Of a stretch of 64,000 nucleotides of DNA, positions 1,878 to 35,452 are shown in pieces; positions within the stretch are counted from its first letter, which is position 1, and the number at the start of each line of letters is the position of its first letter. The stretch is from Schmidtea polychroa (Eukaryota). Where the stretch lies: NCBI GenBank assembly GCA_044892525.1, contig CM097885.1:115134001-115198000 (forward strand), read 5' to 3'. Both the position numbers and the translations under genes were made by a program. The notes below the pieces were generated by a model that saw only the letters and a list, made by a program, of their open reading frames with translations, made no database searches and was not told the DNA's origin.

Positions 1878-2522
1878 TCAAAGTTCTGAATGTCGTTCCT
1901 GTCTTGGTGAATTGTTATTCGGGAATCTCTGAGAATTCTGAATTGAATGGCTGGTTGACGTTGTTGACGTGGAGAGTTGGATTGTGACGGGTATCTGGTT
2001 AGAGGATAGATTTTGTCGCGTTTGGTCAGATTGGTCTGGTGTTTGAAAACGCACTGTTCGTGTATGCTTGTTTCTTGGTCGTGGGTTCTTTCTTTTGGGT
2101 TTCTCGAATTGTGGTTGGTTTCTTCTCCATGCTCGATAGATATCATACGCTTTCCAGATGACTAGCGCGCAGATGAGGATGGTTTCACTAATTGTAGCAT
2201 AGAACAGGACTTGACTTTCTTTTGCTTCTTTCTTCACGAGGGTTTCTTTCAGAGATTGTTGGGTGGTTTGTTCTTGTAGGAGAATTTCGAGTTGTTCGAT
2301 CCTTTGGGTTTGTAAACTGAGTTGTATTTGGGCCTTTTGCCAGACGGCTTTGTTCCAACATGGTTTCTGGAGGTTGTTGTAGGGTTTTCTTTCGTTTTAT
2401 AGTTTGGTTATTGGGTCTTGTTGCTCTTCGGGACTCTTCCAACGTGTTGGGGTTGACTACCACATGGGTATTCCGTTTATTGTTATCATTATTATGGTTA
2501 TCAGGGTTGCTCCGGACCACAT
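1878..2522 (-). pseudogene. Accessory type-I membrane protein (signal peptide + coiled coil + TM), two in-frame stops
   Basis: ATG 2522 reads MWSGATLITIIMITINGIP and is in frame with the 1878-2237 ORF containing hydrophobic ISETILICALVIW. Confidence 0.55.
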
Positions 2523-2572
2523 ACTACTATACGAATATTTTATATACATTTATTTACATCAATTATCCATTT

Positions 2573-3265
2573 TTAATTATGGTCGGGATTTCTTTTTAGT
2601 GCTTTCTCAGATGCTCTCATCACTTCCGTTTCCGCTTTTATTACTCGTTTTCTCAATTCTGGCAGTACTTCTAGTTGCTTATCTCTTTCGTCTACCTGTT
2701 GTTTTAGGATCTTTATTTTTCCTTTTAACACCTTTATTTCCTGGGTTGCTCTTTCCAGGTTGTTATGGTTCAGTATTTGTAAGAAGTCGTTTCCTCTTTC
2801 CTCGTCTTTTTCGTCGTCTATCTCTTGGTATTTGTTGTTCAGTTTCCTCATTATCTCACACTCCTTTTGTTTTTGATGTAATTGGAGTTGTAGCTCTTTC
2901 AGGCTTTCTTGGTGTTTTCGTGCTTCTGTTCTCCAATAATCATTAATGACTTCGTCTGCCTTTCTACTGGCCCTTTCCTGCCATAATTCTTCTGCAATCT
3001 TCTCCCAATTTCTTCCTCGTTTTCTTTGCTCGTGGAGCCATTCGTTCTCCTCTTCTACTTCTTTCTTCACTTCTTCTAGCAAGGTGTATTCTTTTTTCAA
3101 TACTTTAATCATTTTTCGATTGTCTCTCCATCTCTCTGCTAATCTTTCGTTCTCTTGTCTTTCTTCTTGTAATTCTTCCTTGATAGTTCTCTTCCTCTCC
3201 ACTTCTTCGACTTCAATTTCTCCCTCTTCTAGTTCAGTTGTGGCGAGTATTTCCTCTATTTTCAT
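2573..3265 (-). CDS. Accessory coiled-coil protein, 230 aa, unknown function
   Basis: Open ORF, E/K/R-rich heptads, ttgcag acceptor 2 nt before the ATG. Confidence 0.65.
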   Translation of the reverse strand: MKIEEILATTELEEGEIEVEEVERKRTIKEELQEERQENERLAERWRDNRKMIKVLKKEYTLLEEVKKEVEEENEWLHEQRKRGRNWEKIAEELWQERASRKADEVINDYWRTEARKHQESLKELQLQLHQKQKECEIMRKLNNKYQEIDDEKDEERGNDFLQILNHNNLERATQEIKVLKGKIKILKQQVDERDKQLEVLPELRKRVIKAETEVMRASEKALKRNPDHN

Positions 3266-3448
3266 TTCTGCAATATGTACAATTAATATTTGCGCTACAG
3301 TGCGGCTTATACTTATATATTTATAGGTAATTTATATAATTAGGGTTACAGTCCCGTAAATACTTTTATCGTACTATTAAATTTTTTTTTTTTTTTTTTT
3401 GGGATACAGGTTCCGATTTTTTTTAATTTTTATCTTTTCTATATGCCT

Positions 3449-4494
3449 TTACACAAAGGTCTCTTCCTGACCTACATATCCTTCATCGCTTTTCACTGAC
3501 GCTTGTAGATGGAGTGCGATGGGATCGAATGGAATATAGTTTCGAGGAATCTGAGCTCTAAGCTCCTGGACTTCGTCTCTTAATGCTCTTGATACGTTAA
3601 GTTCCTCGTCTAACAGGTATGTCAGATACCTGGTTTCGTCATCCCTTACTTCTATCTGTTTTTCTAACTCTTCCGCCTTTTCGCCGTTTTCCCATTTTTT
3701 GATCTCCTTTTCTAGGTTTTTGATGTTTTCATCATACATCTTCCTTTCATTTTCTAGTTTTTTGTTTTTTCCGGCTAGCACTATGTTCCTTTGTTCTAGT
3801 GCCCCTTTATAGCCGTTATTGTCTCGCTCCAGGTCTGTCACCTTATTCACGAGTTCAACGATTCTCCCTGACTGTTGCAGGATCATCTCTTCCATGGCAG
3901 TATTTTCCTGTTCTTTCATAGATAACTTCATGGCCAGATGCCTTTCAAATTCCATGGCCTTGGTCTGCCAGGTTTGACTTCGGGCGGCGATTTTTCTGAG
4001 CCTCCTTAGCTCCTCTCTTTGGTCAAGGTTTTCTTCCCATTTTCCTTGCTCACTCTCGTATCCTAGTCTCTGAGGCAATTCTTTCATTTCTTTTTTAATT
4101 TCTTGATGTGATCTTTTCCACTTTCTGGCTTCTGTCAATAGTTGACGAGATTTCCTTTCCTCTTTTTTGGGTTTGTAAACTGAGTAAACCGTTTTTTATT
4201 CTCGTTGGTCAGTCTTTTTCTCGACTCCTGTACTAATTGTTTTAGGTAGTGACTGTGAGCTTCCTGTCGAGTACTCTCTAGTGCTGCCCATTTGGCGGCT
4301 CTTTTACATGCCTCTGCCTCTGCTCGTAAATTTTGCACCAACCACTGGAATTGGTGGTTCTCCCATTCTCTTGCTTCTTCGAGATAGTTTCGTGTTTGGT
4401 TTGCTAGTTGCGCCATCACTTTGGCCCATCTTTCTCGGTGCATCTTATTGATTCTTATCTCGTGGTTTTGGGCTTCAGTTTGTTCTGAGGTCAT
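3449..4494 (-). pseudogene. Accessory coiled-coil protein (~350 aa) with one frameshift near 4170
   Basis: The 4135-4512 and 3449-4138 ORFs join across an A-run (EERKSRQLLTEARK). ATG 4494 has a ttcag acceptor 7 nt upstream. Confidence 0.6.
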
Positions 4495-4706
4495 TTTTAA
4501 TCTGAATAACAATGTTATTAACTTGACGTCGCAAATTTGTTTTTATTATTTATTGTTTATAATTCATTATCGGTGGGTTGCTTTAAAATTTTTCCGCTTG
4601 AGTTTACCATTAATATATTTGGGGCTTAGCTACACTACTATATATTATTTTGCTGGATATATACGCCGATATTTACAAATTAGTATATACAAAATTATTC
4701 GTTTCA

Positions 4707-6106
4707 CTACTCTGTCCTACTCTTTCCATCTCGCCTCACTGTTATCTTTTTGTATATGGTATCGTTCCTCGTCATGTCCTCTACTTTTCGCTGTAAGATG
4801 AAATTCGGTGCTCCGGATGCTGGTCCTTCTTCCTCCAATGGCATCTGATAACATACGAGGTTTCCTGCTGTATGAAAACTCTGTTCATGTATACTTTGAT
4901 GATTCATCATTGCGAGGTTTATTTTCGCTTTGAACGTCATTCGATTAGCTCGTCGTATAACCCTTTGCACATAAAAAAGAATACTGAAAAATGTGTTCCG
5001 TATGCGCTTCCGTCCCAGTTGGGATACGCTTTCATTTTCATTTTATACCCGTTTTTCCATGCATAGAATGCTGGACTTAGCAATGTTGTATCCTTTCCGT
5101 TTCTCGCTTTCTGCATTTTTTCTTTTACTCCCGTTATCTTCCATATGTAGGGAGCCGTTGGTATTAATTCGTTGAGGTCCATTTTGCTCACTCTTTGATA
5201 TAGTTCTTTCACCATATTATTGCTAGTTTCTACTAAGTCGGTCTGTATCTTCGTACTTGTTCTCGCTTCTTCAAATGCTTCTTTTTCTTGTAATAACTCC
5301 TTTACCAACGCTTTTAGCGAGATTATTTCTTTTTCTAAGTTTTCGGTTTTCCTTTCGTTTTCTTGTAATACCGTTGACCACATCTCCGCGTGTGTTGATA
5401 CGTTCTCTGCTAGATGTTGGGGTAATTCTCCTCGGTGTAATTGTTTCTGACATCCCCATTTTCCTAACACACACGTTATCTTTTTCCTTTCACATTCTCT
5501 CAGATGTTGGGCGAGTTTTATAACTCCTGATTTATTGCATTTGTTAGGGCATTCTCCTCTGAACTCTGCGCACACTTTTTCCTCTTGTAGGTTGTGATGT
5601 TGATTAGTTAATTTTCTCCAGGTATCAGTTTCTCCGCAATATTCACATTTTTCCAGCCTTTCCTCGCATCGACTTTGATGTTCTTCCTCCTCATTTGCTT
5701 TAATCACTTCCTGGCAGCGTTTACATTGAGTGATCTTATATGCACATCCCTCCATATGCTGCTTGACTTCCCATATCAATCCTCGCCAACTACATGGGGT
5801 GTTTTTACATCCTAAATTTGCATTCAACATATCTTTCACTGCCGCTTTATCCTCGTTTGTCTCTTCCAAACTTGTTATCATGGCTTCTTTACATACTGGG
5901 CACCATTGTGGTCCCTTCTTTATTATCTCTTCTACACATTCTTTGCACATTCTGCATCCACATCTGGTTTGGTGAGGCTCTTTTAATAAACTCTTGCATA
6001 TTCCACACATTACATGGTTGTGTATTTGAATTGTGGTGGATTGTCTGACTAGCTCGACAATCTCTTTGAACTCTTCTCTTTGTCGCTTGTCCATTTCTAC
6101 AATCAT
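4707..6106 (-). pseudogene. Intronless TRAF-family protein (RING, TRAF zinc fingers, coiled coil, MATH) with stop/frameshift at ~4937
   Basis: CGICKSLLKEPHQTRCGCRMCKEC..CPVC RING; repeated C/H fingers; MATH start YIWKI..SPAFY..GYKM..YPN.DG..GTHFSVFF..KG.YD. MATH continues in the 4707-4970 frame (FKAKINL..ASGAPNF..NDTIY). Confidence 0.92.
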
Positions 6107-6185
6107 ATATATATATATATATATATTCGTTACTGGTACAGTTTCGTATTCTATTTACAATTATTTACATTTTATTTGGCTATAT

Positions 6186-6545
6186 TTATTGGCTAGAAGA
6201 GTCGGCCTCCTGTCCGCCCTCTTCCCTATTGGTTAACCATTCTGACCAGTCTTCCATCTCTACTTGCTCGGCTTCCTCCATCATTCTTTCTAATTCGATT
6301 TCTTGTCTTTGACTATACCGTGTTATTCGTTCTATCTCTCTCTGCATTTGGTTGATTTGTACCCTCTGGTCCTCAATTATTTTTAAATAACTAAATCCTT
6401 TGTTCAGACTATCTACTAAGTTCCTTTGCGCAGTGAGTCCTTGCTCCTGTAGATTTGATACTAATTGTGCTAATACGGTACATTGTTGCTTCCACATGTC
6501 CTCAGTTGTTGTATTGTGGTTTATCTCGTTGTTTGTCTGCTCCAT
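6186..6545 (-). CDS. Small accessory coiled-coil/acidic protein, unknown function
   Basis: Open ORF from ATG 6545 (MEQTNNEIN...) between AT-rich spacers. Confidence 0.5.
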   Translation of the reverse strand: MEQTNNEINHNTTTEDMWKQQCTVLAQLVSNLQEQGLTAQRNLVDSLNKGFSYLKIIEDQRVQINQMQREIERITRYSQRQEIELERMMEEAEQVEMEDWSEWLTNREEGGQEADSSSQ

Positions 6546-6690
6546 TCTTAATTTATATAGACTTTTCAACCCTTATCTAATTTTAACTTCATATTATTAT
6601 CCCCATAATTATATAATATTGATACCGCGCTTGTATAAAAATATAGAATACTGTTATATAAATAGACATAATGTACTTACTTTTTACAAT

Positions 6691-8085
6691 CTATATACAG
6701 TCATAATCCTTTCTATATTTGTGAGTTTGGAGGGGCTGAGCATTCCAGGCCTCCACCCACTGTTCTTGCTTGATTTTACTTGGTCGTTTGACTCGATGCT
6801 GAAAATTTCTGATTCTGGCCATCTCCAGTTCTCCGCGATGTCGTCTGTCTTTGATTATTTTTATCGTTCCCCCCGTTATGATTAAAAAGGCCCCAGCTAT
6901 TATTATTCCGCTGATCCACATCATCTGTTTTACGCTGATAATTTCCGATTTTTCCTTGTTTGTTGATATCGTCTCTGTACTTTTCTGATTACCGCCTTTG
7001 CCATTTCCCTTTATCATTCCTCGTATTCTCGCTATCTCCTCGTTCATACCTTCCTTTGCCATTTTTTGTATTTTTTCCATCTCTTCCTCTGACACATAAT
7101 TATCTTGATATTTCTCACTGGTTTTCTTGCGCTTTTCTTCCTCATCTTTTTCATCATTGCTTTTTCTTTTCTTCCCTCTTTTCCCAGGGTATCGTCGACA
7201 TTCTCTCTCTGTATCGTTTCTCCAGATACATACCGTGTATTCTTTTGGAGGTTGTTGCTGTGTTACATATTGTAAACAGTCTTCACCCGGTCTTAATCTT
7301 GAAATACAGACTTTGTGTTCTTTCCTTGGCTGGAGTTGCGTTATCACTGCCTCACCTCCTTTTTCCAGGTGTACCTCTTTCCCTTTAACTTTCGTTATTC
7401 TCTTCCCGTCTCGATTTCGGTATGCTTCTTGTATTCTTACTTCCGTTATCGGTTCTGTATCTTCATTTATCAACACTAGTCTCTGATATGCTCTAGACAT
7501 ACATCTTCCTAGTATGCACCTTTCTTTTAGATCCCATTCCTCTTTTAGATCCCATTGCTGATCCTGTGACCGTTTTTTCTTCCCCTGGTTTAGTTCTTCC
7601 TCCTTGTTGTCTTTGTTTTCCGTTTCTTTGGCTTCTTTTATTGTTCTCATCCCCCCATGGGCTGTTACTAACTCCATCATTGTTAGCACAATTATCATTA
7701 ATATCATATTCGTCTCTATTTCCTTGTTGGTGAAAAGTAGGCATACCCTCTGTTTTTCATTGTTCGTCTTTTCTTCTTCCTTTGTTCGGTTTCCGTGGGT
7801 GTTCTCCTCCTTTTTTGCACTTGAGTCGTTATTCCTTTGATTATTCTCTTTTGATTTCTTTTTCTCTCTGTCATCGTTTCGCCCTTTTCCATTATTATCG
7901 TCGTTATCGTCGTCTTTATCTCCCCCGCTGTCGTTTAAAATGTCGTCCTCGACATTTATATCGTTCAATAATCTGCGATATGATGTTAACACTCTGTTCC
8001 TTGCTAATTTTGCTTCGAATTCAAACTCTTTCCTCCCCGTTGCCGCATGTCTCTTTCTATTCCATTCCTTGACTAATTCTCTCAA
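6691..8085 (-). CDS. C-terminal pol extension: internal signal sequence, FN3-like ectodomain, TM helix, cytoplasmic tail
   Basis: Separated from the upstream ankyrin ORF by one in-frame TGA (8110-8112). Hydrophobic MILMIIVLTMMELVTA and MMWISGIIIAGAFLIITGG segments; ITQLQPRKEHKVCI resembles the FN3 L.P..Y.VC motif. Confidence 0.6.
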   Translation of the reverse strand: MRELVKEWNRKRHAATGRKEFEFEAKLARNRVLTSYRRLLNDINVEDDILNDSGGDKDDDNDDNNGKGRNDDREKKKSKENNQRNNDSSAKKEENTHGNRTKEEEKTNNEKQRVCLLFTNKEIETNMILMIIVLTMMELVTAHGGMRTIKEAKETENKDNKEEELNQGKKKRSQDQQWDLKEEWDLKERCILGRCMSRAYQRLVLINEDTEPITEVRIQEAYRNRDGKRITKVKGKEVHLEKGGEAVITQLQPRKEHKVCISRLRPGEDCLQYVTQQQPPKEYTVCIWRNDTERECRRYPGKRGKKRKSNDEKDEEEKRKKTSEKYQDNYVSEEEMEKIQKMAKEGMNEEIARIRGMIKGNGKGGNQKSTETISTNKEKSEIISVKQMMWISGIIIAGAFLIITGGTIKIIKDRRHRGELEMARIRNFQHRVKRPSKIKQEQWVEAWNAQPLQTHKYRKDYDCI

Positions 8086-8109
8086 TTGAATACGACGATG
8101 TTTTCCAAT

Positions 8110-8670
8110 TCACTTTTGTTCATTTTGATTTTGCGTGAATTTGAGGTCTTCCCGGTTTAGTACGATCAGTATGATTTTAGGAGTTCCTCCTTTCGTCAGC
8201 GTATTTTTAACCATTGCATTTTCTCCGTTTTCGTAGAACTCATTGATATTAATTGCATATTTATTGCTTTGTGGTATTCTCCATGTTAACAGTAACTTCA
8301 TAGCTTCTAAGTTTTTCCGTATCGTATTCCATTGGAACTGTGACGTATTCTTACAGATATTTTCTACCTCGTATCTTGTCGCATTTTTACAGATGAATCT
8401 AATCATTTCCAAGTTTGGTTGTATTGTTGCCCAATCCATGGTGGAATTTCCCTCGTTTGAGGTTTCGTCAAGTCTTGAACCTGATTGATGTAATATATGT
8501 AATGTTTTCGGGTGTATATTTGTTATTGCCGCATACATCATTGCTGTTTCTCCTTGTTCGTTTTTAGCGTTAGATTCTTCTCCTAAATCTCTAAGAATTC
8601 GCATGATTGTTATTGCTCTATTTTCTTTTGCTGCTAGTATTGCTTGTTGTAATGGTGTTCTTGAGTCTTT
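8110..8670 (-). pseudogene. Second ankyrin-repeat block of the pol extension
   Basis: TPLQQAI; NAKNEQGETAMMYAA; NEGNSTMDWA. Frameshift from the integrase ORF near 8670. Confidence 0.8.
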
Positions 8671-11194
8671 TGTTGGTATGGTGAATGCTTGTCTTTATTT
8701 TTCCTATGTCTAGATTTGTGGTCTGATCCCTTGCGTAGGTGTGTACTGTTTTTATTATTTTCGCTAGTATCGCTTCGTCAGATAAATCTCGCATTTCTTC
8801 GAAGAACACCTCTTTGGCTTTACGTATTACTATCTCGTGATCGGAGTTTATTATCTTTGCTTTACTTGTGGTTGTTATATTGTTTGGTATTTGATCGTCT
8901 TGTTTCTCAGACTCCCTGGTTGTTACTTTCTTCATTTTTATCTTTTTCCTGTTTGAACTGTTAATGCGTTCCTCCGCCGTAAGCACTTGAATAATACTTA
9001 GGTAGTTTTCTCGAATGTTATTCATGGTTTCCATCATATATAAGACACTCACAGTTTCCCAATATTTTACTTGTACTTTTTCGGTGAATTGAGATATGGA
9101 TTTTTCGAAACTGATAATTCGCTTTCTGATCAGTTGTTCGTCTTTGTGGTTTGAGAGCTTTATACCTCGTTGCAATAGTTGATTTGGAATTTCGAATAGA
9201 TGGTGTCCTCTCATAGCTTCTCTCATCAAGGTGTTTTCTCCTTTGGTAAATGTTTCGTTTATATCTACCATATAATCGTTTTTGATCGGGTTTCTCCACG
9301 AAATTAGTATTCCAGTAATGGTTATCAATTTCTCTTTGATTGCGGTTAATAGCCCGTCATACATATTTCCTATCTCTCTATTATCCTCATATGATAATAG
9401 ATCTACTAAGATTATGAAAGCTTCAGTACTTTTTCCTTTGATTGCATGATGTAGTGCATTTTTCTGATCGTGATCTTGTGTGGTTATCTTTGACCCTGTT
9501 TCCAGCAATGCTGTAATGATATCTTTAGTTTTATCCCGATTTGCTGCTATCATTAGTGGAGTGTAACCTTGATTGTTTTCTTGATTTGTCGAAATGTTAC
9601 AGTCATGAAATGCTTCAATCGTTTCCAATATTTGTTCATTATTACCAACCTTTAAAAGTTTGTGTAATGGTGTATCTCCGTAGTGGTCTGTGATCGTGAA
9701 TAATATAGGCCATTGACTTTTAACCACTCTGAGCAATGGGTGCGTTCTTTCCCGATTTGCATAATTTTCTATCATTGTTAGTAGACCTCCTAGTATTTCA
9801 AAATCCAATCTATCTTTTGCCCATCCGGGTATTTTAACTTTTACCTCTTTTATGATTCTTTCTGCTTCTGACGGTTGTAATCCTAGTCGACTGCCTGTTG
9901 GTTCGGTTACCTGTCGTAACATGTTCATTCTGTACGTTTGTGATCTTGTTGTTAATGTACGTCCTTCTGGCTGGCTAGTAGCTGTTTTCGGTATTGGTTT
10001 GCAGCGTGCAACGTTTACATATATTGGCCTTGTGAATGGATTGTTTACTAATCGTACTCTTACGTTAGTTTCTCCGACGAATAAAATCTCATACGGTCCT
10101 TTGCCATTGCGTTGTAATTTCTTGGTGGTTCCGGGAATTAATTCTGGTGTTTCGATCATCACCCAATCGCCTGTTTGAAACGTATGTTGTTTAACGTTTT
10201 TCTTTCTATCATGCAGATCTTTGTAGCTCTCCTGATAAAATTTTATGTTTAATCCTGCAGTTTCCCAGATTTCCTGCATTCTTTCCTTGAACTTCGTTAC
10301 ATAATCGTCTATTTCCATATATTGTGATATTGGTAGCTGATACTCTAAATCCATTGGCATATTACATTCTCTGCCGTACATCAACTTGAACGGACTCATC
10401 TTTGTGGATGCATGGATTGACATCCGGTAAGCCATTAGACATAATTTTATGTATTCATCCCAATCCCGTTGGTGACGGTCAACATAATTTGACAACATTT
10501 GAATGAGCGTTCCATTGAATCTTTCTGTCATACCATTTGTTTGTGGATGATACGGTGATGTTCTTAATTTTGCAATCTTGAAGTAGTTGGTTACTTCGCT
10601 CATTATTTCACTCATGAAATTTGTCCCTTGATCGGTCAGTATTTGTTTTGGCGTTCCATATCGACAACATATCTCTTCTACTAGTATTTTGGCTATTGTT
10701 TTTGCTTTCTGGTCTGCCATAGCGAACGCTTCAGGGAATTTAGTTAGATAATCCGTAATTACCAATATATAAATATTTCCTCTATCTGATTCTGGCAGTG
10801 GACCGACTACGTCCATTGATATCATTATCATTGGTTCAGCTGGTACTGGCATTGGCGTTAATGGTGCTTTCCATTTTGTTCCCGTATTTTTCCTAGTTGC
10901 GCAAGTTATACAATTTTTCACCCATTCCATTACATCCTCAGGTAACGTAGGCCAGAAGTATTTTTGTTTCATTCGTGCTAGCGTCTTTTTTGATGACATA
11001 TGTCCTCCGAGTCTTCCGTCATGATATTGCGTTAGCAAATCCTTGCGTCTATTCTCTGGGATACACATTAGTCTTTTTTCACCATCCATTATCAATAACC
11101 AATCCTTTTCTATTATATATCGGTGTCGATGTTTATCCATATGCTCTTTCAACTTTTGATCTTTCTCATATACCTCTGCTTTCCCGGTTTTCAC
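8618..11194 (-). CDS. Integrase (HHCC, DDE, GPY) fused to ankyrin repeats
   Basis: YHDGRLGGH..CITC; SMDVVGP; TDQGTNF; PYHPQTNGMTERFN; GPYEI; then GDTPLHKL, GYTPLMIAA, KNALHHAI. Confidence 0.95.
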   Translation of the reverse strand: MKTGKAEVYEKDQKLKEHMDKHRHRYIIEKDWLLIMDGEKRLMCIPENRRKDLLTQYHDGRLGGHMSSKKTLARMKQKYFWPTLPEDVMEWVKNCITCATRKNTGTKWKAPLTPMPVPAEPMIMISMDVVGPLPESDRGNIYILVITDYLTKFPEAFAMADQKAKTIAKILVEEICCRYGTPKQILTDQGTNFMSEIMSEVTNYFKIAKLRTSPYHPQTNGMTERFNGTLIQMLSNYVDRHQRDWDEYIKLCLMAYRMSIHASTKMSPFKLMYGRECNMPMDLEYQLPISQYMEIDDYVTKFKERMQEIWETAGLNIKFYQESYKDLHDRKKNVKQHTFQTGDWVMIETPELIPGTTKKLQRNGKGPYEILFVGETNVRVRLVNNPFTRPIYVNVARCKPIPKTATSQPEGRTLTTRSQTYRMNMLRQVTEPTGSRLGLQPSEAERIIKEVKVKIPGWAKDRLDFEILGGLLTMIENYANRERTHPLLRVVKSQWPILFTITDHYGDTPLHKLLKVGNNEQILETIEAFHDCNISTNQENNQGYTPLMIAANRDKTKDIITALLETGSKITTQDHDQKNALHHAIKGKSTEAFIILVDLLSYEDNREIGNMYDGLLTAIKEKLITITGILISWRNPIKNDYMVDINETFTKGENTLMREAMRGHHLFEIPNQLLQRGIKLSNHKDEQLIRKRIISFEKSISQFTEKVQVKYWETVSVLYMMETMNNIRENYLSIIQVLTAEERINSSNRKKIKMKKVTTRESEKQDDQIPNNITTTSKAKIINSDHEIVIRKAKEVFFEEMRDLSDEAILAKIIKTVHTYARDQTTNLDIGKIKTSIHHTNKRLKNTITTSNTSSKRK

Positions 11195-11206
11195 GTATTC
11201 GATAAT

Positions 11207-13601
11207 TTACTTCAACTCTACATCATCTTGTTGGTCTTTCCGTAATTGGCAAAAGTCTAAATCTTCCGCTACCATCAGACATATTCGTTGCATTTCGTGA
11301 TCCACTAAGTCTGGAAAAATAAATCTTGACATACAATCTGCATTTGCGTTTGCTCTTCCTGCTTTGAATTTTATGAATGGTGAATATTCCTGTAATTGCA
11401 TAGCCCATCGCATCAATCTACTGGAGGCTTCTTTGTGTTGTCCGAGCCATACTAATGGTTGATGATCTGTTGTTATACATATTTCATGTCCCCATAATAG
11501 ATATCGAAAATGCTTAATTGCCTGTATTATTGCTAATGCTTCCCTTTCTGTTACCGAGTAGTTTTTCTCATGTTTCTTGAACGTTCTGCTGTAGTAGCCG
11601 ATTACTCTCTCCTTACCTTCATCGTCTAGTTGTCCCAGTATTGCTCCGGCTGCATAACCACTTGCATCTGTCGCTAATAAAAACGGTTTCTTGAAATCTG
11701 GATGTACTAGTATTGGGGCTTCGATTAATTTATCTCGTAATGTTTCGAACGCCTTTTGTTGTTCTGCTCCTCAGATAAAGGAAATATCTTTTTTCACTAA
11801 TTCTTGGATAGGTTTCGCAATGCCTGCATAGTTTTTAATGAATTTACGATAATATCCGCCTAGTCCAAGAAATTCTTGAACTTGAGTGACGGTTTTCGGT
11901 GCTGGACAGGTTTTTATTTTTTTCTATATTTCTGGGATCTGGTTCTTTGCCTTTTGCTGACACTATGTGTCCTAGGAACGTAACCTTCTCTTTTGCCCAA
12001 TCACACTTTGATGGTTTGAGTTTCAATTTCCATTGCCTTAATCGGATGAACACATTTCTAATATCCTCCAAATGTTGTTCAAATGTTGCTGAATATATTA
12101 ATAGATCATCAATATATACCATACACTGCTTGATCCCGTGCGTGACAAAGTTCATGCATCTTTGAAATGATGCTGGGGCATTAGTTAATCCAAATGGCAT
12201 TTTCCTGAATTTGTATAGATCTCGTCCCAATGTGAATGCTGTTTTCTCCTTGTCCTCCTCTTTGACTTTGATCTGCCAATATCCGCTTTTCAGATCTAAA
12301 GATGTAAAATATGCGGCTCCCTGTAACATAAGCAACATCTCATTGATGTCTGGTAGCGGGTATGTGTCTCTTTTCGTTACCGCGTTGAGTTTTCGATAAT
12401 CGATACAGAATCTCTGCGTACCGTCTTTTTTCTTCACCATGACTACTGGAAATTTCCATGGTGAACAACTCGGTTCAATTACTTTTGCGTCTAACATCTT
12501 TTGCACTTCTGCTTCAGCTATTTCTTTTTGTTTTTCTGCTAGTTTGTATAAACGTAATGCGATTGGAGTTTCGTCTATCAACGGTATTGCGTGTAATGTA
12601 ACATCGCATGCTCCCAAATCCAAATCCGAAATGGCGAATATATCTTTATATTCTATCAATAATTGTTGAAGTTTTCCTTTTTCATTCTCTGTTAGCAAGG
12701 TACTATCGATTATCCATAATTCGTCAGTCTTCATGGTGTCGTTGATGATCTTTGGTAATTCAATGTCCATCATCGGTGTTAATCTACCCAATCTTTCATT
12801 CTCATATATGATCTTATCTTCTTCCTCGAAATTCGTGATGTTAATTGGTATTTCTCCTTCTTCATTTATTGTTATTATTTCTCTTGCCAATGGTAATTCT
12901 CGTCTTTTTTCGAATGATTTGCTTGGTTCGAATATGGCTTCTCCTTCCATTCCGGTATCTACTTTTATTTGACATATCATTTGTGATTTTGTTGGTACAA
13001 TTATTTTTTCCGGACATCTAATTATGGCTTTCATCTTGCATATTCTACCCAATTTGTCTTTTAGGCACATTGTTGTTAGATCGATTACCACTTCTTTGAA
13101 TAATTCCGGCATTAAGTCTGTTCCGATTATACAGGGTTCACTCAGTTTTGGTATTACCGCCAGATAGGTTTCGATTTCATTATCTTGATATCGCAACTTG
13201 GTCCGCCATCTTCCCACTACGTCTACTGTCTCTTTGCTGCATGCAATAATATGGATGGTTGTCTGTTCGATGTCTTTCCAATATTTACTGGGTATTTGAT
13301 TTATTGCTATTGCCGATACATTTGCTCCGGTATCTATCATTGCGCTCGTCTCTTTTCCATTAATTCGGATCATGACTGTTACGGCTGAGCCTCCTAGCGA
13401 ACTCATTACTGCTATCGTTCTTACGTCATCAGCTTGGTCTACGCTTTTGGTTCTTCGGGTTGGCATATAATTCATTCCTGGTTGACTTGGTAACTGTGGA
13501 TACATATTTGTGTCATGGTTAAAGCTGCTTGTGGTCCCACGATATCCGGTGGTATATAACTTCCATTGGCTATCCAAGTATTCGTCTTTTCTTTCTCCCA
13601 A
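11207..13601 (-). pseudogene. Protease - reverse transcriptase - RNase H
   Basis: IDTGANVS protease; RFCIDYRKLN, PFGLTNAP, VYIDD; TDASG, EREALAI, TDHQPL, NADCMSR. Frameshift ~11920, TGA 11771-11773, TAA 11207-11209. Confidence 0.96.
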
Positions 13602-15853: not shown

Positions 15854-15918
15854 TGATCTTTCTTGTTCGTTCTTTCGTGGGGCTTGTATCAGCCTTTTCC
15901 ATCCACCGGCGTGGATAA

Positions 15919-21830: not shown

Positions 21831-21999
21831 AGGGTGAAGGTTTCTTAAGGCTATTTAAAGATACGGTATAGGCGGGTAGAAGTGGGAGAGTAGAGGTTGA
21901 AGGATAGGTGAAAGGTTGTTTTAATTATTGTTTTTTTTTTAAATATTAAATATAAATAAGCAAATATAGGAATGAGGCAACACAAGAAAAGAGACGCTT

Positions 22000-22660
22000 G
22001 ACTGTTCAGGGTTGGTTGGGTTGACGCTTGACTGGTCAGAATTGCCGGATTGGTCATTCACAGTTAAAAACACATATAACAAAAGAGACTGGCTGGGTTG
22101 AATGGGTTGACGCTTGTCTGGTCGGGATTGCCGGATTGCTCATTCACAGTTAAAAAACATATATAACAAAAGAGACTGGCTGGGTGTAATGTGTTGACGC
22201 TTGACTGGCCAGGATTGCCGGGTTGATCATTCACAGTTAAAAAACATATATAACAGAAGAGACTGGTTGGGTTGGTTGGGTTGACGCTTGACTGGTCAGA
22301 ATTGCCGGATTGGTCATTCACAGTTAAAAACACATATAACAAAAGAGACTGGCTGGGTTGAATGGGTTGACGCTTGTCTGGTCGGGATTGCCGGATTGCT
22401 CATTCACAGTTAAAAAACATATATAACAAAAGAGACTGGCTGGGTTGAATGTGTTGACGCTTGTCTGGTCGGGATTGCCGGATTGCTCATTCACAGTTAA
22501 AAAACATATATAACAAAAGAGACTGGCTGGGTTGAATGTGTTGACGCTTGATGGCTGGGTTGGTTGGGTTGGCGCTTGACTGGCCAGGATTGCTGACTGT
22601 GTTGGTTGGGTTGAGGCTTGACTGGTCAGGATTGCCGGATTGATCAGTCACAGTTAAAAG
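22000..22660. repeat. 86-87-bp tandem repeat in the LINE 3' UTR
   Basis: ttgacgcttg recurs at about 22021, 22107, 22194, 22281, 22367, 22454, 22541. Confidence 0.9.
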
Positions 22661-22808
22661 CACATTGATGGGCAGGTGTCCAGTATGTCCTTGTATCATT
22701 GGGTATTCAACACGGTGGGTCCTTTCTATTAAATAAGTCGGTTGCCCGAGGAGGTGCATGGTATAGAATAATGGATATATTGTTTTTATTATTGTAATCG
22801 TTATTATT

Positions 22809-23025
22809 NNNNNNNNNNNNNNNNNNNNNNNNNNNNNNNNNNNNNNNNNNNNNNNNNNNNNNNNNNNNNNNNNNNNNNNNNNNNNNNNNNNNNNNNNNNN
22901 NNNNNNNNNNNNNNNNNNNNNNNNNNNNNNNNNNNNNNNNNNNNNNNNNNNNNNNNNNNNNNNNNNNNNNNNNNNNNNNNNNNNNNNNNNNNNNNNNNNN
23001 NNNNNNNNNNNNNNNNNNNNNNNNN
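22809..23025. other. Assembly gap (217 N)
   Basis: Run of N. Confidence 1.
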
Positions 23026-23228
23026 TTGATACTATGAATACCAATATCAAAAATCTTGTTGCTAATATTAAGAGCTTTGCATTCATACGCAACACTCAGT
23101 ATAGAAAATTTTTAAATCTCATCATTGCATAGGGATAATTAAAATTTTGTATAATAGGAATAGTTTTGATATAAATATGGTAATGCTTTGACAGTTAGAT
23201 AATATATAGAGAAATATGGGGGTGTGTG

Positions 23229-25965: not shown

Positions 25966-27070
25966 TTTCTTTTAACCTTCCGTATTTGTGAATTAAATTT
26001 ATGGTTCTCCAGTTGCTCATCCTGAGTAATTCTGTATCGCGCAATTGGCTCATTAGTTCATGCATGGCTGGGGCTTGTCTCGCTATAAGCAAATCCCAGT
26101 TATCCTCAACTTGTTCTTGGATTTGCTTGATTAATTTATCTAAATTTCGTCGTAAAGTACATTGTTTTAGTTGTTCTAGTTTCAGCTTGATATTAAAATC
26201 GTATTCCGCCTTGGCGTCTTTAGCCCATTCGTGAATATTGGCGGGTTGCCTCTCCTTATGCAACTTCAATATTTGCGTTTCTCCTGGCCAAATTAATGCA
26301 TCAATTAGGTGCATATCTGGTCGGATTTGTTCTCCTTGGTATTGATATAGATACTCTTTCTTCCTCGAGCTGCCTAAATGCTCTCTTATCCAATCGAACA
26401 GTTCGTCCGTAACGGTATTTTTTATCCATATTCTCTCGAGTCCTTTACTTGTTCCGATCTTTATTACATAACGTATTGTATCTGCTTGTTTCATTTTTTC
26501 CATATACTTCTTTATTATCGCTTTCTCCTCGCTTGGTATTAAATCTTTTTCGTTTCTTTCCAGTTTCATTATCTTTTGTATGAAACGTCTATATGGTATA
26601 ATGTCAATGAATTCCTGGTTTCTTACCACCACTGGAAGTATTTCTTTTACTTGTTTTATCGCTTCTTCTCTTTCTTTTCTCAATTTCATCTCGATATTCT
26701 CATCTTCACTTTCGCTTGTTACATCACTTTCGCTCTCATCTTCATCTCCTTTTACTTCAATCTTTTCTTTTAGCTGTTCAATGTTTTCATTTAACTGTAA
26801 TATTTCTCCACCAAGGCTACTCACATAATCCTCCTCGTCATCCGTTGAAAATACTTTCTCTGTCGTCTTCATCACATTAATTCGTAAATTTCTCATTCTT
26901 GGTACTTTCTTTAGCTTTTTATTCTCGAATATTGTTAGTTCCTCTGAGTCTAATTCTTGTATCATCTCATGATTTAGATGGTTACTCTGTTTCCCGTTTT
27001 CGTTATTTTCCGTTTCCGCTTCTGTTTTGATTTTCTCGTGTTCCCTTTCGATTTTATCTTTTATCTTTTT
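25966..27070 (-). pseudogene. Gag extension, part 1: acidic coiled region and ubiquitin-like domain 1
   Basis: In frame with gag after a single TAG (27071-27073); UBL-like YQYQGEQIRPDMHLIDALIWPGETQILKL. Confidence 0.7.
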
Positions 27071-28990
27071 CTAGAATATTTTCTGAATTCTCTGGTTTCC
27101 CTTTAGCGGTGTTGTTGAATTTTCTCTTTTGCTTTCTATCATTGTTTCTTTTGGCTTCTCTGGTTCGATCATAGGTACAACTCTTGGATTTTTACCGTAA
27201 TTATAACAATATTGTTCCTTTATGTCTTTCACCATTCTCATCATATTTATCCTTAACGGTTGTTCTTGTCGTTGCCGAATTCGCTCTTGTTTTATTCTTT
27301 CTTCGTCAGCTTGTAATCTCTGCCATTCTTGTGCGTGTTGTTGTGCTTCATAATTGTTGAGATTTTCGGTGCTCCTTATCATACGTATATTCTGAGTTTG
27401 TTGTGGTACTTGTTCTTGTCTTGGTCTCATCATTTGTTGCATCATCTGCTTCATTTGTGAAATTTCTTGCATTACATTCATTTGTTTTCCCTCACTGGGG
27501 TTACTTTGTCGTTGCGGATTCGATGCATAATTATTATTTCGCTGGGGTGGTCGTTGTTGTTGGCTTCTTTCTCGGCACTCCCTCGAGATGTGACCTGGTT
27601 GACCACAGTTAAAACATGTTCTCATTTGGCATATATTTTCCGTGTGCCCTCGTCGTCCACACCTACTACAATTTGCGTTTCGGTAACAATCTCTATCCCA
27701 ATGCCCTAGTTTTCCGCATGTTCGACATTGTTTATTTTCGTTCATATTCCTCCTATTATTGGAGTTACTCCCGTTATTCATATTGTTACGATCGCTACTA
27801 TTCCCACTAGGTCGTCCTTGTGGTGGTTTGAAAATTTGGTGTGCTCCTGGTATAAATTGATTCATCTTTGGTTCATGATTGTTATGATCGCCATTCTCTG
27901 TTTTTGCCGTTGCTGTCGCGATTCTCCCCTCTTCTTGCATGACATTCATTTGCGCTGGGAGGTGAAGTTCGCATCTCGTGGCCCAATCTATGGCCTCTTC
28001 CAAGGTCTTACACATTTGGCATCCCACCGAGGCTCTTACCTCCTCTCGGCGAAGTCCTTCTATAAAATAACCAACAGGTTTTCCTCCGGTAAGTTTCCGT
28101 TCATGGCTTTCTTTGCTAATCTTCGCAATTCGCTTGCATATAACGTTATCGACTCGTTGGCTCTTTGTTTTCTACTTGCTAGTTCGTTTAATGCTTGATT
28201 TATCGGTTTGCTGGCTCCGAACGTTCTCCTCAAAAATGTTTTGATGCTTTTCCAATTGTTCAATGTCGTATTTCTTTCTTTCTCCTCTAGATACACCTCG
28301 AGTGCGCTATCGCACAAAAATAAAGGCATTCGTTTACTGATTGCTTCCTCTGTCCATCCGCACACCGTTGTGTAAACTTCAAAGTTGGTTATAAACGCTG
28401 CTAATTTATTCGCATTCCCATTGAAGGGTTCGCCTCTGAATTTCTCCTTATACTCTTCTGGTTTGCTAACATTCGTCATGATCGGTTCTTGAAGTTCTAC
28501 GATTTCTTTTAAATTATCTAACGATGTGGCTAAACTATGGGTGGATAGTTCTTCTGTTGATGCTGTTAGACTGTTCGTTATATCGGTTATACTTTCTCTG
28601 CTTCTAGATCGGCTTGGGGTAACTCGGGTTGTTGGGTTTTCTTTGTCGTCTATTGGTATTCTGGTTGTTTCGTTAGGTCCTTGCGATAATCCTCATTTAT
28701 GGCGATTTGATCTTGTTCTTTTGATGCTTTGCAATTGTTCTACTGAAAATAATGTATCGTATTGATTACTTGAGGATCTGAGCGCTCTTGAATTAGCCGT
28801 GATTTTTTCCTGTTGTCCCTTTGTCTCCTCTTGGTTTTTCTGTACTTTGGGCGGGTCCGACTTGGTTTGGATTGTTGGTTTCTCCGAATTCCTCCTGTGC
28901 AGGTTCTGAAATGCCTTAACTGGATTGCTTTTTCAGTCTTCTTCGGGTTCCTTCTGGACTGGTTCTGAATTGACTTGGTTGTATTGATAT
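27071..28990 (-). pseudogene. Gag: capsid-like domain and three CCHC zinc knuckles; frameshift ~28070
   Basis: EPFNG..AFITNFE; YFIEGL..TLEEAI after frame correction; CRTCGKLGHWDRDC, CSRCGRRGHTENIC, CFNCGQPGHISREC. Confidence 0.9.
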
Positions 28991-29654
28991 CTACAATGAA
29001 AAAATGATATCGTGTTGCATTTGCTTACACGAATCAATCATTCCTTTTTGCCACATTCAAGCACAGACACCGTTTTAAGGCCTCTGTTATGCTTCCCTTC
29101 TCCTCCCCTTATAATCTTCGTGGAATATAATTACCCATCAACCCATAATTTGCGTCGATTTTAAATTATCTATATGGGGTAGTCACAATTATCTATATGG
29201 TCGTATTAATTATCTATAATTATCATTTATAATATCGATGGTCGTTGTCGGTTACTACTTATTACCCCCCATATTTTCTTAATCCTTTTACGCGGTTCCG
29301 CTTAATCTTTCGTCTCTATTTTCCCTTTACTCGGTTCTATTCTGGAACCAAAACAAAAATCGTTTAACCGGTTTAAACTCAAAAAAAAATTCTGTAGATC
29401 TTTGTCTACTTACCTGGGATCCCTTTAATTATTTAATTATAACCATTCATTTGCATTTATTCTTTATTTTCCTCATTTCCGTAATTCATTTTCCTCTTCC
29501 TTCTTTTTTCTCACTATAATCTTATTATCATTTTCTACGAGCTCGTTTATTCCTCTCTTTATTCAAATTCCTGTTTCTCAATTTAATTCGTTTCTAGCTA
29601 GCTTTACTACTCTGTTTCCTGATTAGCTTAAATGCTATATCATTATTTCTACTA

Positions 29655-30930: not shown

Positions 30931-31424
30931 ATCTAAATAAATGTGTTGTCATTACTCGGTCTCACTTACAAAAATAAAAATAATATAATTGTGTTGTAAT
31001 CAATATTCGTTTGGCTTTTATTCGCTATTGTTTCTAGTTTATGTGTTTTATTCAATCTTTAACACTTCCCCCTTTTTAATTTAATAAATTAAAATTAAAC
31101 AAAATTAGCCAATTCCCGTTTTCTTTTCTCATCATACTCAATCATTAGACTCATTTTTATTCATGCATACTCCATTTCAGACACATATTGTTCGTATTGT
31201 CATTTATTACACTATAATATCACACTGATTCGGTTCGGTCCCGATTTCGTTATTATCATAATTAATTAAATTATTAAATTAACACCTCATAATACAATAA
31301 TAGGCAGTTAAACAAATCAAATTGAGTGAATCCCGGCTGAGCCCCCAAAAATCATGTTGGCATATGAGGGAGAAGAAACCCATACATACATAACCGTCAA
31401 CATACCAGACCTCATCGTTTAGCT

Positions 31425-31608
31425 CAGGCACTTCCTATGCATACGCCAAATGATCATCCGAATATTCCCACGCATGAGCCCGTGGTGATGTTCCACGTTG
31501 GTACTGCCCACACAGGTCGGAAAAGGTTAGCAGGTGAGCCCCTACTTTAGGACTACTGATAACCCCCTCGCGGTTCAGGTTCCATGGTGCCTTAGAAGGA
31601 CTTACCCC
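31425..31608 (-). ncRNA. Conserved structured motif, copy A (inside the intact element)
   Basis: GTAAGTCCTTCTA..AGTAGTCCTAA..GGGGCTCACCTGC..AGTACCAA shared with four other copies; covarying stems. Confidence 0.55.
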
Positions 31609-31899
31609 TATTCGTACATCAATCACGGTCCGATCCTGGTCCAAGGGAACGACCTTCATCCTGATTTCATTCATCTCACAGCATTATTTCGTTTATTCTG
31701 ATTTCAAAAATCAAACATACGGAAACTTCACAAGACAAAATCGAACAGAAAATATATTGACACCGACAACACAAAAGTAATTACAGCGTTACCAATGATA
31801 GGTTTAACAACATTTAATCAATTTGAACATGCAGCGTTATCGACGTTTGCAAGTTGAATCACAACTCGAAGAGAAATCGAGATCGAACGTAGGTTGTTT

Positions 31900-32661
31900 C
31901 TAGGTAAAGTTTTCCCCGTCGGCGATTATCTCATCGATGTCGACAGGCAATCGACAATCCGATATAAACCTGATGCCATTGGCCGGGACAATACGAAAAA
32001 CTTCCTTCGAGGGAATCGAATGGGTAGATGATATTTCGGTTAATTTTGACTGCGCTGCAGACAATGATGCTTCGAGCGTCTTTATCGCATCTCTGCGTTT
32101 TTTATTCTTCTCGGCCCTGGTTGGATGCTTGCGTTTTCGGGGTGACGGATTTTCTTCTCCAACCGTGATGACAGTAGGTGCCACGAGAATCGGGGCCAGA
32201 ATTGGGTCAGATGGACCACCTTTCATTGGTAGGTATCCTGACAGCACTGAGGCTGGGATGGGCGGTAGATGTGAACCGTGCCCTTGACAAGTTGTGGTGG
32301 AGGTTGTAGATGGCTGATGGTGGAGAGGGAAAACGTTTGTTCCGTCGATGACAGGAAACTCGCGCACTCGCTTGGCTAATTCTGCCTCCGTATAGACTTT
32401 GTGGAGGGCTTCGGGCTGGGCCTTTATCGTCAATCGTTGATTACGACTCTCCTCCAGGAGGCTATCGCGACAATGCTCCAGTCGCAGGATCTTGCTACGC
32501 TCCTCCTTCATTTGTGGCGGGGAGAACCACGTGCCTTCGTAAAGGTCAATTCTCTTTTTCAGTGCCCCGATGTAGAGTTGAAGCTGCGCGATGTCAGCAT
32601 TTTTATCAGCGCAGGAAAGACAAGGACGAAGAGCGTTTCCAGATTGGATGGGCGTAGTCAT
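31900..32661 (-). CDS. ORF-X, 253 aa: CxxC, coiled coil, basic patch; unknown function
   Basis: Open ORF with homologues at 36.3, 39.75, 45.3 and 50.0 kb. Confidence 0.75.
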   Translation of the reverse strand: MTTPIQSGNALRPCLSCADKNADIAQLQLYIGALKKRIDLYEGTWFSPPQMKEERSKILRLEHCRDSLLEESRNQRLTIKAQPEALHKVYTEAELAKRVREFPVIDGTNVFPLHHQPSTTSTTTCQGHGSHLPPIPASVLSGYLPMKGGPSDPILAPILVAPTVITVGEENPSPRKRKHPTRAEKNKKRRDAIKTLEASLSAAQSKLTEISSTHSIPSKEVFRIVPANGIRFISDCRLPVDIDEIIADGENFT

Positions 32662-32960
32662 TCTAGAATTTTAATCAATAGTTTATGTTCATATCATTCC
32701 CTCCTATTCACAATCATTCAGTTACAACACATTCAGGCAAATTTTACTCAGTCTAGAGACTTTGGAAAGAAAACGGGGAAATGCTTGAAAACTAATTCAT
32801 TCGACGTAAGATCAACATTTAATTTAGGTTGGATGGTTCCCACCTATTACTCCCTTTTGATTTTTAGTAATTATGAATTCTACATTTTTACTTTTCGAGA
32901 AAATAATAATTGAACAATCCAACTCTTAGCATCGTGGATAGTTGATTTGGGTATGCCCAC

Positions 32961-35452
32961 TGTTGTAGGGCCAGAAATTCGGTAGCATTTATATTTATTT
33001 GTGTAGAATCAGTCCTGATAAATGAAAGTATTGCGAACTATATTTTATAATTAATATATTAGGAATTAAAATATAATATTTTCCAAAAACGCGCCATGCT
33101 CGTTGTCGTGGTGACGCCTACACGTGTGTGTTTGTATGTCATGTTTCGTCTCTACGACGCGGCTTATCATGCTTACTGGATCAGTCTGGACTCATGCCTT
33201 TCAAGCAAATTCATCTATCCACTCTCTCGCCCTTACACACAGTTCTACTATCCTGAGCAATTACGATTACGAAATTATGATGTCATAGTGTAGTTTACTA
33301 TCCAGATTTATTACCATCCTACTGAGATGCATTCTATTTTAAGGCGTAATAATGCGTGTATTTCCGAGACACAGTCGATTAAGATTTCTACTAGAAGTTT
33401 TATGAGCAACCATATTCTAGATGGTAGATGACCAATTCGGGGGATAATAGGTGAACTGGTGTTGGAAATCTAATTTTTATCGTACGGACGACTCAAGATA
33501 ATCACTTGTCAGTGCATCAACTGAATAAGTCAGTACGGAAATTGGTATCTTATCATTCCTACCAGATTCCCGTCGGTCGTTTAATTCTATTAGCCACAGT
33601 TTGACTGAAATTCATTTATCAATTATCTGACAACCTCGACCGCGGCTTCCTAATGCAATTAACAATTTACCGATGACACTGTCAGTGGTTGATCTCATCT
33701 CTATCGTCGATAGTCCGATAATTGCTCATGATTTATTTACCTTATTTGCAGAAAACGGCGCTTATCAGAAATCCGAGTGTCAACAATCAAGGCTATAAGT
33801 ACATCCCCTATGGGTTTCATCGCTAACGTGCTGGCAATCCAAATCAGACGATATCTTATGAATTTACTATGCTGCAGACAAACAGTTGGATTTAATCGCA
33901 AACGGTGATTGTCAAGATTCTTTCTTAGCTACTCTGATCGTCAGGCTGATTTTCCTGAAAGATTTTCCTCAATCTATGTGAAGTTTGTTTGGATCTATCT
34001 AAACACTCATATCCATCTAAATCCGGATTAACCTCTGTTGGGAGTTCAAGCTTCCTATACGAATATCAGAAATCCCGATATAACTGAACGAAATGATAGA
34101 ATTATCCTCCTAACGATCGCGCTGAGTGAAGGAAAATTTTTACTCCGCAACTGGATTTTTCCATCTACCGAGTCTCATCACCCCTCATGCACCGTCATGA
34201 GGGACCAATCAACTCCTTTACATTCAAAAAAAAAAAATTAAACATTCGTATAAAAGTCATAATAATGACAGAATAAATGATGAGCAAAATAAACAAATCG
34301 AAATACCCGGCGACCATATCATCTGGGCTCCAAGTATGATGCTTTTCCCTTTTCGATCATATATTCAATTTCAGCATTTGCAAACATCTCATTGATTATT
34401 ATCACCTTCTCCAGTCCTAATATCTTCGCAACATCTCCTAGATGCATGCCACAAAAACTCCTCGTGGCTACTTCCTCCATTTGGCATCATACTTGAAATC
34501 ACCAGAGGGTATAGTCGTCGGCACCATGAAGAAAGGCAGTTTCTATTTTCAAATAAATTTATTAAATGAAATTATTCTTATTATTTACAAAAATTTACTA
34601 AAGTCAATCATAAATATCTATTAAATTCAATCATATAAGACTAATCCATAAATAACTTAACATACTTCGAGGTTTGAAAAACTGGAGTTAATCGGTTAAC
34701 GCGAAGGTTTTCTTGAGTAAGTTTACTGAGCTTCTTCCTAAAATCGATTTGGTTGTTTTTGAAATTAGTCCTTCGTAGTAGTTCGTAAGTCAAGTTCTGC
34801 AATCGTGAAAATTAAAGTGGTTCCTGAATGTCGTCCTGTAGAGTTTGGTTAAAAGTGGTTGTTCAAATTTAAAAATTTTACCTGTAGAGTTTGGTTAAAA
34901 GTGGTACTCTACTAATTTTTCGCGTTTCTTATATACTATTTTTTCGTCCAATCAGGACTCAGTTAGGTTGTAATTTTTATATTTATTATTATTTAATGTT
35001 TTTATTATAATATATTAGCCTTTAATAACTTAACTTATTTCTTATTATTATTTTATTTATTTTTCTTATTCTTATTATTTTTCTCCTATTTTTCCTGCTG
35101 ATTTATGGTTACTTTATTGCCATATGATTTTTTGTTTTAATTAGGCTTAGAGATATTTTTATTTTTATTTATTGCTTTAATTTCTCGTTTATTTTCTCTC
35201 ACTTTTTCGTTTATTCTATTTCTACTTTACCCGCTGGGTGCTTTAAATCCTTTCTCTTTTGTCTTCGTTCCAATTCTTAGGGGTTTTATTTATTTATTAC
35301 TTATTCTTATTTCTTTTTATGGGTATTTTATTGTTTCCTTATTTACTATTGAGGTTTGATGGTAATTTATCTTTTATTATATTTTGTTTATTTTTCGAGG
35401 TTCGCTTCCCGATTCAACCCAGTTTTTCTCTACTTCAAAATTTAGCCCAACA
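32961..35452 (-). repeat. 5' LTR, about 2.49 kb
   Basis: Right end is fixed by the repeat boundary (TGTTGGGCT on minus). Left end is inferred from plus-strand TGTTGTAGGG at 32961, which gives TGTTG...CAACA termini. Confidence 0.8.
34877..34952 (-). promoter_or_regulatory. LTR promoter: CCAAT box, TATA box and downstream 5' splice donor
   Basis: ATTGG/CCAAT at 34948-34952; GTATATAAG at 34936-34928; CAG|GTAAAA donor at 34882/34881. The same layout occurs in the related LTR at 43.2 kb. Confidence 0.65.

Follow-up and report, generated by a model that had tools for sequence, protein, structure and literature searches.

A tandemly copied leader exon in a Burro-type giant retrotransposon of Schmidtea polychroa suggests a long terminal repeat intron rebuilt at reverse transcription

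The closest described relatives of the element discussed here are the planarian Burro (GYPSM1) elements, which exceed 30 kb, are bounded by long terminal repeats (LTRs) and carry one huge Gag-Env-Pol-ankyrin open reading frame (ORF), in which gag and pol are separated by a fusion protein of mononegavirus type (PMC6431247; the papers cited here were available to us in part, and what is said of them holds for those parts). In a 64,000-nt stretch of the Schmidtea polychroa genome (assembly GCA_044892525.1, contig CM097885.1, positions 115,134,001 to 115,198,000 of the forward strand; hereafter the window), the minus strand holds an element that, judged by its sequence, is a Burro-type giant Gypsy LTR retrotransposon extending from position 35452 to beyond the window start. 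This element resembles Burro/GYPSM1 in its size, LTRs, Gag-Env-Pol-ankyrin ORF, MATH/TRAF and RING motifs and accessory ORFs, and differs in that TRAF is a downstream accessory ORF and that another ORF, termed ORF-X, lies within the LTR (PMC6431247). Our subject is a 24-nt leader at the LTR promoter and the acceptor-like sites in front of the ORFs, for which an earlier note on this DNA had proposed either alternative splicing of an LTR leader of about 25 nt to many genes or resolution of the ORFs by spliced leader (SL) trans-splicing. The location of ORF-X inside the 4.1-kb LTR and the tandem copying of the leader go beyond that note. The element family is known and the feature is real, while the twist that it suggests in replication is possibly new. 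A literature search uncovered neither a report of a duplicated leader nor one of Burro splicing (Grohme et al. 2018 and its supplements lay outside its coverage), and the available parts of PMC6431247, PMC8532177, PMC13524379, PMC5542766 and PMC13238120 make no mention of splicing of Burro elements.

LTR elements usually replicate from unspliced RNA (PMC3315495), and single aspects of the present arrangement are known from other systems. Foamy viruses also have their major splice donor in the LTR (PMC3694450) and make spliced subgenomic pol and env mRNAs (PMC7828637), but they leave their genomic RNA unspliced, are not reported to have a leader copy and read their accessory genes from an internal promoter (PMC3694450, PMC7828637). 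HIV-2 has an optional 140-nt intron in the 5' leader of its full-length RNA, the spliced form of which is excluded from particles (PMC3315320); the HIV-2 intron therefore survives by not being spliced, whereas here the sequence suggests that the spliced form serves as template. Cer1 is likewise a Gypsy element with a spliced subgenomic RNA in a trans-splicing host, although it uses the host SL1, leaves its 8-kb RNA unspliced and makes one accessory product (PMC3315495). Finally, dinoflagellate retrogenes carry tandem and relic leaders that arise from cycles of splicing and reverse transcription (PMC12014239). In that system one host SL is added in trans, whereas the leader described here is encoded by the element, is specific to the subfamily and is followed by its own donor.

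The predicted leader exon (L1) runs from the putative cap site to a splice donor and is followed by GT, 22 unique nt and a second copy of the leader (L2) that ends in AG at 34836 (Table 1). The TATA box occupies 34935-34928 and the GT begins 46 nt after it, at 34881, which agrees with the donor described in the earlier note; a donor had also been claimed for a divergent LTR, and a GT is indeed present there at 43273, although the context is AAG/GT rather than CAG/GT (slashes mark the exon-intron boundary). This divergent solo LTR, flanked by the target-site duplication TTAC, has a different leader and the same plan. Searching the genome for the pattern TATATAAG-N40-50-AG/GTAAAATT gave 196 matches, whereas its reversed control gave 2. 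All loci were also scanned more loosely, with GTAA required, and of the resulting 96 TATA-donor candidates 76 showed both a copy and sufficient flanking sequence; these comprise 67 distinct cores with 57 leaders, and the LTR donors vary around AG/GTAA. Across the 67 cores the unit has a period of 43-55 nt and ends in AG in all but one (66/67), and the duplication begins 29-31 nt after the start of the TATA box in 49. Identity between L1 and L2 reaches 0.99 over the final exon bases and drops to background from the first intron base onward; identity over positions -22 to -1 was partly selected for by the scan, whereas the edges alone were not. L1 and L2 agree at 22.9 of 24 nt within their own LTR, as against 11.4 between LTRs, and 20 disjoint pairs of related LTRs hold 45 changes common to both leader copies versus 13 and 14 confined to a single copy (some of these counts are inflated by indels). 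None of the 57 distinct leaders contains an ATG (12.8 in shuffles). When 40 loci were chosen by ORF-X alone, the promoter lay in range in 28, and 19 of these have the donor and the copy while nine have a single leader. With its GT...AG ends and host-size length the unit has the properties of a spliceosomal intron: 43 of 78 host myosin intron candidates, a rough and noisy set, measure 40-59 nt, and planarian introns have a short peak at 45-85 nt (PMC13594981). An LTR leader exon of about 24 nt, as predicted here, is thus strongly supported, and its copy, whose limits coincide with the predicted cap site and the donor, may be the footprint of a spliced first exon. Moreover, 24 of the 67 cores have leader-like relics within 150 nt past L2, whereas none of the 67 has one at 300-450 nt. 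Most of them begin 0-23 nt after L2 (15/77 by stricter alignment), positions that suggest a short R region.

We lean toward the view, which we rate slightly better than even, that the 24-nt LTR first exon is cis-spliced to one acceptor per ORF and that the replicating RNA is spliced as well, L2 rebuilding the donor at each reverse transcription. Transcription would start some 30 nt downstream of the TATA box, and in the full-length RNA L1 would be spliced to the AG of L2, giving a 5' end composed of leader plus exon 2; splicing of the leader to a later acceptor would instead give the mRNA for one ORF. Minus-strand strong-stop DNA, ending in a leader copy, would then pair with L2 at the RNA 3' end. 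The new LTR would receive L1 and the donor from the RNA 3' end and L2 from the spliced 5' end, and for this reason the intron would be restored and the two copies kept identical. Mis-registered pairing with L1 would leave an intron-less LTR, and an unspliced template a triple-leader LTR. Both predicted by-products are present: precise intron-less LTRs occur, at both ends of one full element (L247/L248) among other places, and so do triples (L033, L034); the clustering of relics just after L2 is likewise expected if strand transfer occurs there. In addition, the unspliced 5' region contains 50 ATGs between L2 and ORF-X, which would make it unscannable and leave the same donor as the most straightforward way to give each ORF a 5' end. 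The fuller version of the proposal, in which the packaged genome is the spliced RNA, the LTR intron is rebuilt each round and eight ORFs spread over up to 32 kb receive the 24-nt leader to form an adenovirus-like nested mRNA set, is more tentative, and we place it a little short of an even chance. Nested mRNAs that share a single 5' leader are familiar from the adenovirus major late unit and from nidoviruses, although neither reverse-transcribes a spliced genome and nidoviruses make no use of the spliceosome. If correct, the proposal would mean that Burro-type elements splice their genome yet keep the intron, would explain how seven accessory genes are expressed from these 30-kb elements, of which planarian genomes hold many, and would provide a route to intron gain by leader duplication. 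Exact junctions are predicted and can be tested against planarian long-read RNA.

The sites to which the leader would be joined were compared among homologous ORF starts from 204 loci plus the window, the upstream 40 nt being clustered at 75% and several ORF-X matches without an in-frame ATG near the expected place being excluded. Of the 49 ORF-X clusters, 45 have a T-n-Y-A-G motif no more than 9 nt before the start; 500 shuffles gave 4.4 on average and 11 at most. The motif is found at the same distance from RING in 6/9, TRAF in 4/4, the 4494 ORF in 5/5, the 3265 ORF in 4/4 and the 2522 ORF in 2/2 clusters, the 3' ORF sets being small and closely related and the copies kin, so that these counts are not independent. 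Its background frequency is 5-7% of other sense-strand ATGs in six elements, with 0/4 clusters for ATGs internal to the polyprotein, and in the window alone six of the seven ORF starts have an acceptor, as against a background of 7%. In RING the YAG is placed 2 nt before the start in 18 of 19 distinct contexts. Upstream of gag, the acceptor at 28991 is kept in all 16 rows in which it could be placed (23 further rows were not placed), and the 508-687 nt between it and the gag ATG contain no ATG in seven of eight elements and one in the window copy, where 6-9 are expected; a stretch of equal length upstream of the gag leader holds 9-15. On these counts the AG acceptor sites before the ORFs are real and far above chance, and the view that they are functional is strongly supported.

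These comparisons also bear on the individual sites of the earlier note. Its AG distances are exact, both in the element (1 nt before 32661, 2 before 30930, 7 before 4494, 2 before 3265, 1 or 4 before 2522) and in the other ORF-X copies (0, 3 and 8 nt before 36298, 39749 and 45288), and two of the checks it had proposed came out in its favor: acceptors are conserved before ORF-X, RING, gag, TRAF, 4494, 3265 and 2522, and the ORF-X clusters far exceed the shuffled sequence. For TRAF, to which it gave a weaker site 26-31 nt upstream, the conserved start is 6094, not 6106, and has an AG 2 nt before it. For the 6545 ORF the weaker TAG about 30 nt upstream is present, but T-n-Y-A-G is found in 0/4 clusters and a TTAAG lies 1-2 nt upstream. 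The donor/acceptor pair 29413/28991 reduces to its acceptor; the donor at 29413 was rejected, since GT is absent in 21 of 39 rows (some of which represent the same locus). The proposed leader of about 25 nt and the acceptors to which it would be spliced are thus supported by conservation.

A number of observations weigh against a spliced and self-rebuilding leader. We compared contigs from one DNA-like and three possible RNA runs with a natural tandem stretch in a related copy (locus L133), and among the matches listed, which the DNA-like run dominates, there was no leader joint or loose end; one contig of a possible RNA run spans the TATA box, the leader and the unspliced intron and continues about 26 nt beyond L2. 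A genomic search for retrocopies of leader-ORF junctions gave 2 matches, neither of them a junction, versus 5 for controls, and no junction was seen among 10 inspected of 13 genomic matches to the RING-junction motif. Intron-less LTRs are common: the nine single-leader cases among ORF-X-picked loci comprise about seven precise and two disrupted ones, and a wider count gives 20 non-G plus a few G-starting intron-less cases against 213. Identical intron-less LTRs at separate loci (L235/L254, L255/L256) imply that an element can move without strictly requiring the donor in cis, and deletion or expansion between direct repeats yields the same single and triple forms without splicing. Donor-like sites are not depleted within elements, which each contain 32-40 acceptor-like sites, so that the choice of acceptor over up to 32 kb is unexplained, and there is no AATAAA near L2. 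In 45 of 50 pairs of LTRs with a common U3, the match is lost within an interval that extends from 92 nt upstream to 50 nt downstream of the L2 end; we rejected this cluster of breakpoints as proof of the transfer site because the region downstream of L2 diverges faster.

Other explanations divide the evidence differently. Distant ORFs are probably expressed via cis splicing, and expression via host trans-splicing is unlikely. The same low standing applies to a mixed system in which the self-rebuilding LTR intron is real while the 3' accessory ORFs, perhaps with RING and gag, form an operon resolved by host SL trans-splicing. Such a system would avoid 30-kb introns, Schmidtea has SL trans-splicing, the spacers between the 3' ORFs (50-223 nt) fall within the 300-nt limit of flatworm operons (PMC12582326), and Cer1 of C. 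elegans makes an SL1-spliced subgenomic mRNA (PMC3315495). As in an SL-resolved operon, the 3' ORFs share a strand, are separated by spacers of no more than 300 nt and have an acceptor before each downstream gene, that of the 6545 ORF being weak. All reported flatworm SLs, however, end in ATG (PMC12582326), yet the spacing between acceptor and ORF start is out of frame in 28 of 46 ORF-X clusters and in every case for RING and TRAF, which is a modest argument; AATAAA is not enriched in the 3' spacers (6-11 seen, 6-8 expected), and the LTR donor would be left with little to do. Use of a host SL at the acceptor inside the LTR is unlikely on sequence grounds, because L2 matches its own leader and the leaders lack ATG; at the closely spaced 3' ORFs the trans-splicing alternative of the earlier note is possible.

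A private SL system, in which the LTR would make a short SL RNA for trans-splicing onto the polycistronic RNA of the element, is very unlikely. SL RNA genes are characterized by an Sm-binding site and stem-loops, and a search of the LTR for such a gene led to its rejection: there is no terminal AUG, an Sm-like site is found in just 9 of 67 introns (1.7 expected), and there is neither a stable fold (z +1.13) nor an Rfam match. The leader is ATG-free and of capped-exon size, and L2 is followed by stacked leader relics from other subfamilies (15/77), as with the SL relics of dinoflagellates (PMC12014239), but L2 matches the L1 of its own LTR and not a pool of leaders. We consider it hardly less doubtful that the doubling is a slip of reverse transcription kept uniform by expansion and contraction of direct repeats, with the genomic RNA unspliced as in foamy virus and HIV-2 and the donor serving subgenomic RNAs only. 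HIV-2 keeps leader-spliced genomic RNA out of particles (PMC3315320), single- and triple-leader forms exist, and short tail repeats after L2 (8/77) show slippage at that spot; slippage nevertheless leaves unexplained why identity stops exactly at AG/GT in 67 cores with 57 leaders and why the period is held at minimal-intron length. Finally, it is extremely improbable that the AGs are chance occurrences in AT-rich spacers and that the ORFs are read via internal promoters or reinitiation. The spacers are 73-82% AT with TATA-like runs, and the 6545 ORF has no standard acceptor, but chance does not account for the frequency of acceptors before ORF-X and in the window.

Table 1. Positions in the window of the element's features, of related LTRs and of nested insertions
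Feature	Positions	Strand	Remarks
TATA box TATATAAG	34928..34935	-	
Leader exon L1, 24 nt	34882..34905	-	predicted cap site to donor; no ATG
GT...AG intron-shaped unit, 46 nt	34836..34881	-	
Second leader copy L2	34836..34859	-	identical to L1; 3' end of intron unit
Relic leader	34797..34821	-	resembles leader of another subfamily; 14 nt past L2
Acceptor (G at 32663) and ORF-X, 253 aa	31900..32663	-	within LTR; no known family
Acceptor and RING ORF, 159 aa	30451..30933	-	PF13920
Acceptor 28991 and ATG-poor 5' UTR to gag ATG	28479..28991	-	ATG depletion
119-aa accessory ORF	6186..6547	-	weak TTAAG acceptor candidate
Acceptor and TRAF-like ORF, start 6094	4937..6097	-	truncated here; 462 aa in other copies
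Acceptor and 4494/4087 ORF	3449..4502	-	two pieces here; single 345-351-aa ORF in other copies
Acceptor and coiled-coil-like ORF, 230 aa	2573..3268	-	
Acceptor and last accessory ORF, start 2522	1876..2527	-	stop-interrupted in this copy
5' LTR	31355..35452	-	4.1 kb; TG...CA ends; ORF-X inside
3' LTR	1..1646	-	extends past window edge; leader 1099-1076, intron 1075-1030
Primer-binding-site-like sequence	31330..31347	-	7 nt past LTR; identical sequence after 5' LTRs of other copies
Gag-Env-PR-RT-IN-ankyrin polyprotein region	6691..28479	-	stops, frameshifts and two nested elements in this copy
ORF-X copy of older LTR holding main element	36290..37061	+	acceptor 0 nt before ATG 36298
Decayed third ORF-X start	39740..39830	+	acceptor 3 nt before ATG 39749
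Divergent solo LTR	42856..46627	+	TATA 43218; leader up to 43272, then 51-nt intron (43273-43323) with leader copy at its 3' end; ORF-X start 45288
Nested non-LTR retrotransposon, outside the system	21219..25955	-	gap vs another copy; RVT_1 and zf-RVT
Nested insertion with 756-aa ORF, outside the system	15935..19075	-	gap vs another copy; no Pfam match

The assignment of the element to the Burro type is based on its architecture. Its 5' and 3' LTRs are 98.9% identical across 4138 columns and the target-site duplication is CTAT; together with the TG...CA ends and the primer-binding site, these features are those of Ty3/Gypsy elements, and the relatives of the reverse transcriptase (RT) are Gypsy-type Pol proteins. 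A Pfam scan of the window identified gag, zinc knuckles, a Monjiviricetes fusion protein (PF24664), protease (PR), RT, integrase (IN), ankyrin, RING and MATH/TRAF matches. PR and RT are located at 13505-11844 and IN at 11140, and the order PR-RT-RNase H-IN was scored as present, the RNase H piece having had no separate scan. In other copies gag, env, pol and ankyrin follow one another in uninterrupted frames of 3950 and 4158 aa, consistent with the single Burro polyprotein in which env (PF24664) stands between gag and pol, and the 26.4-kb donor spacing plus an LTR brings the length above 30 kb. Among the accessory motifs of Burro, MATH, RING and ankyrin are present, whereas BIR, BCL2, ubiquitin-like and dUTPase domains had no Pfam match in the broken pieces of the window copy. 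ORF-X lies within the LTR, RING between the LTR and gag, and five ORFs after the polyprotein. The primer-binding-site-like sequence, which we take to be of the tRNA-Pro type, is offset by 7 nt from the LTR end (31354-31330), and the sequence preceding the 3' LTR (1670-1647) is GC-rich and not a purine tract. A tRNA search of the window found none.

ORF-X (31900-32661) is an orphan gene with thousands of candidate loci in genome G000, no Pfam family and no protein relative outside this genome. Because it lies inside the LTR, solo LTRs retain it along with the promoter, leader and acceptor, and expression from them could follow. The spacers of the 3' ORFs contain TGTAHATA, presumably a Pumilio-like element, 8-12 times per element in the window and four other copies, as against 0.6-0.9 in dinucleotide shuffles. 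The window sites are at 6160-6140, 4700-4670, 3282-3275, 2560-2541 and 1860 on the minus strand, and in one young copy all eight sense sites of 30 kb fall in spacers, mostly paired 13-30 nt after stop codons.

Two insertions interrupt the polyprotein. The non-LTR retrotransposon carries 14-nt and 87-nt tandem repeats, and its RT carries on the reading frame of the element from codon 345 of an 853-aa ORF; the 3.1-kb insertion, probably a DNA transposon, has a 97-99% identical piece in locus L027. The main element is itself inserted in an older LTR of the same superfamily and opposite orientation (35453-37603, plus strand; also at L058), and a third, decayed LTR lies at about 39749-40980. Elsewhere in the genome, head-to-tail arrays with shared LTRs and periods of 26-33 kb are found at G000:C1:72.65-72.70 Mb, C1:145.07-145.17 Mb and C4:46.24-46.29 Mb. 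The remainder of the window contains a proteasome-subunit-like ORF at 52281 and nested long inverted repeats at 53936-60883 (578 nt at 100%) that flank a transposase-like fragment at 57789.

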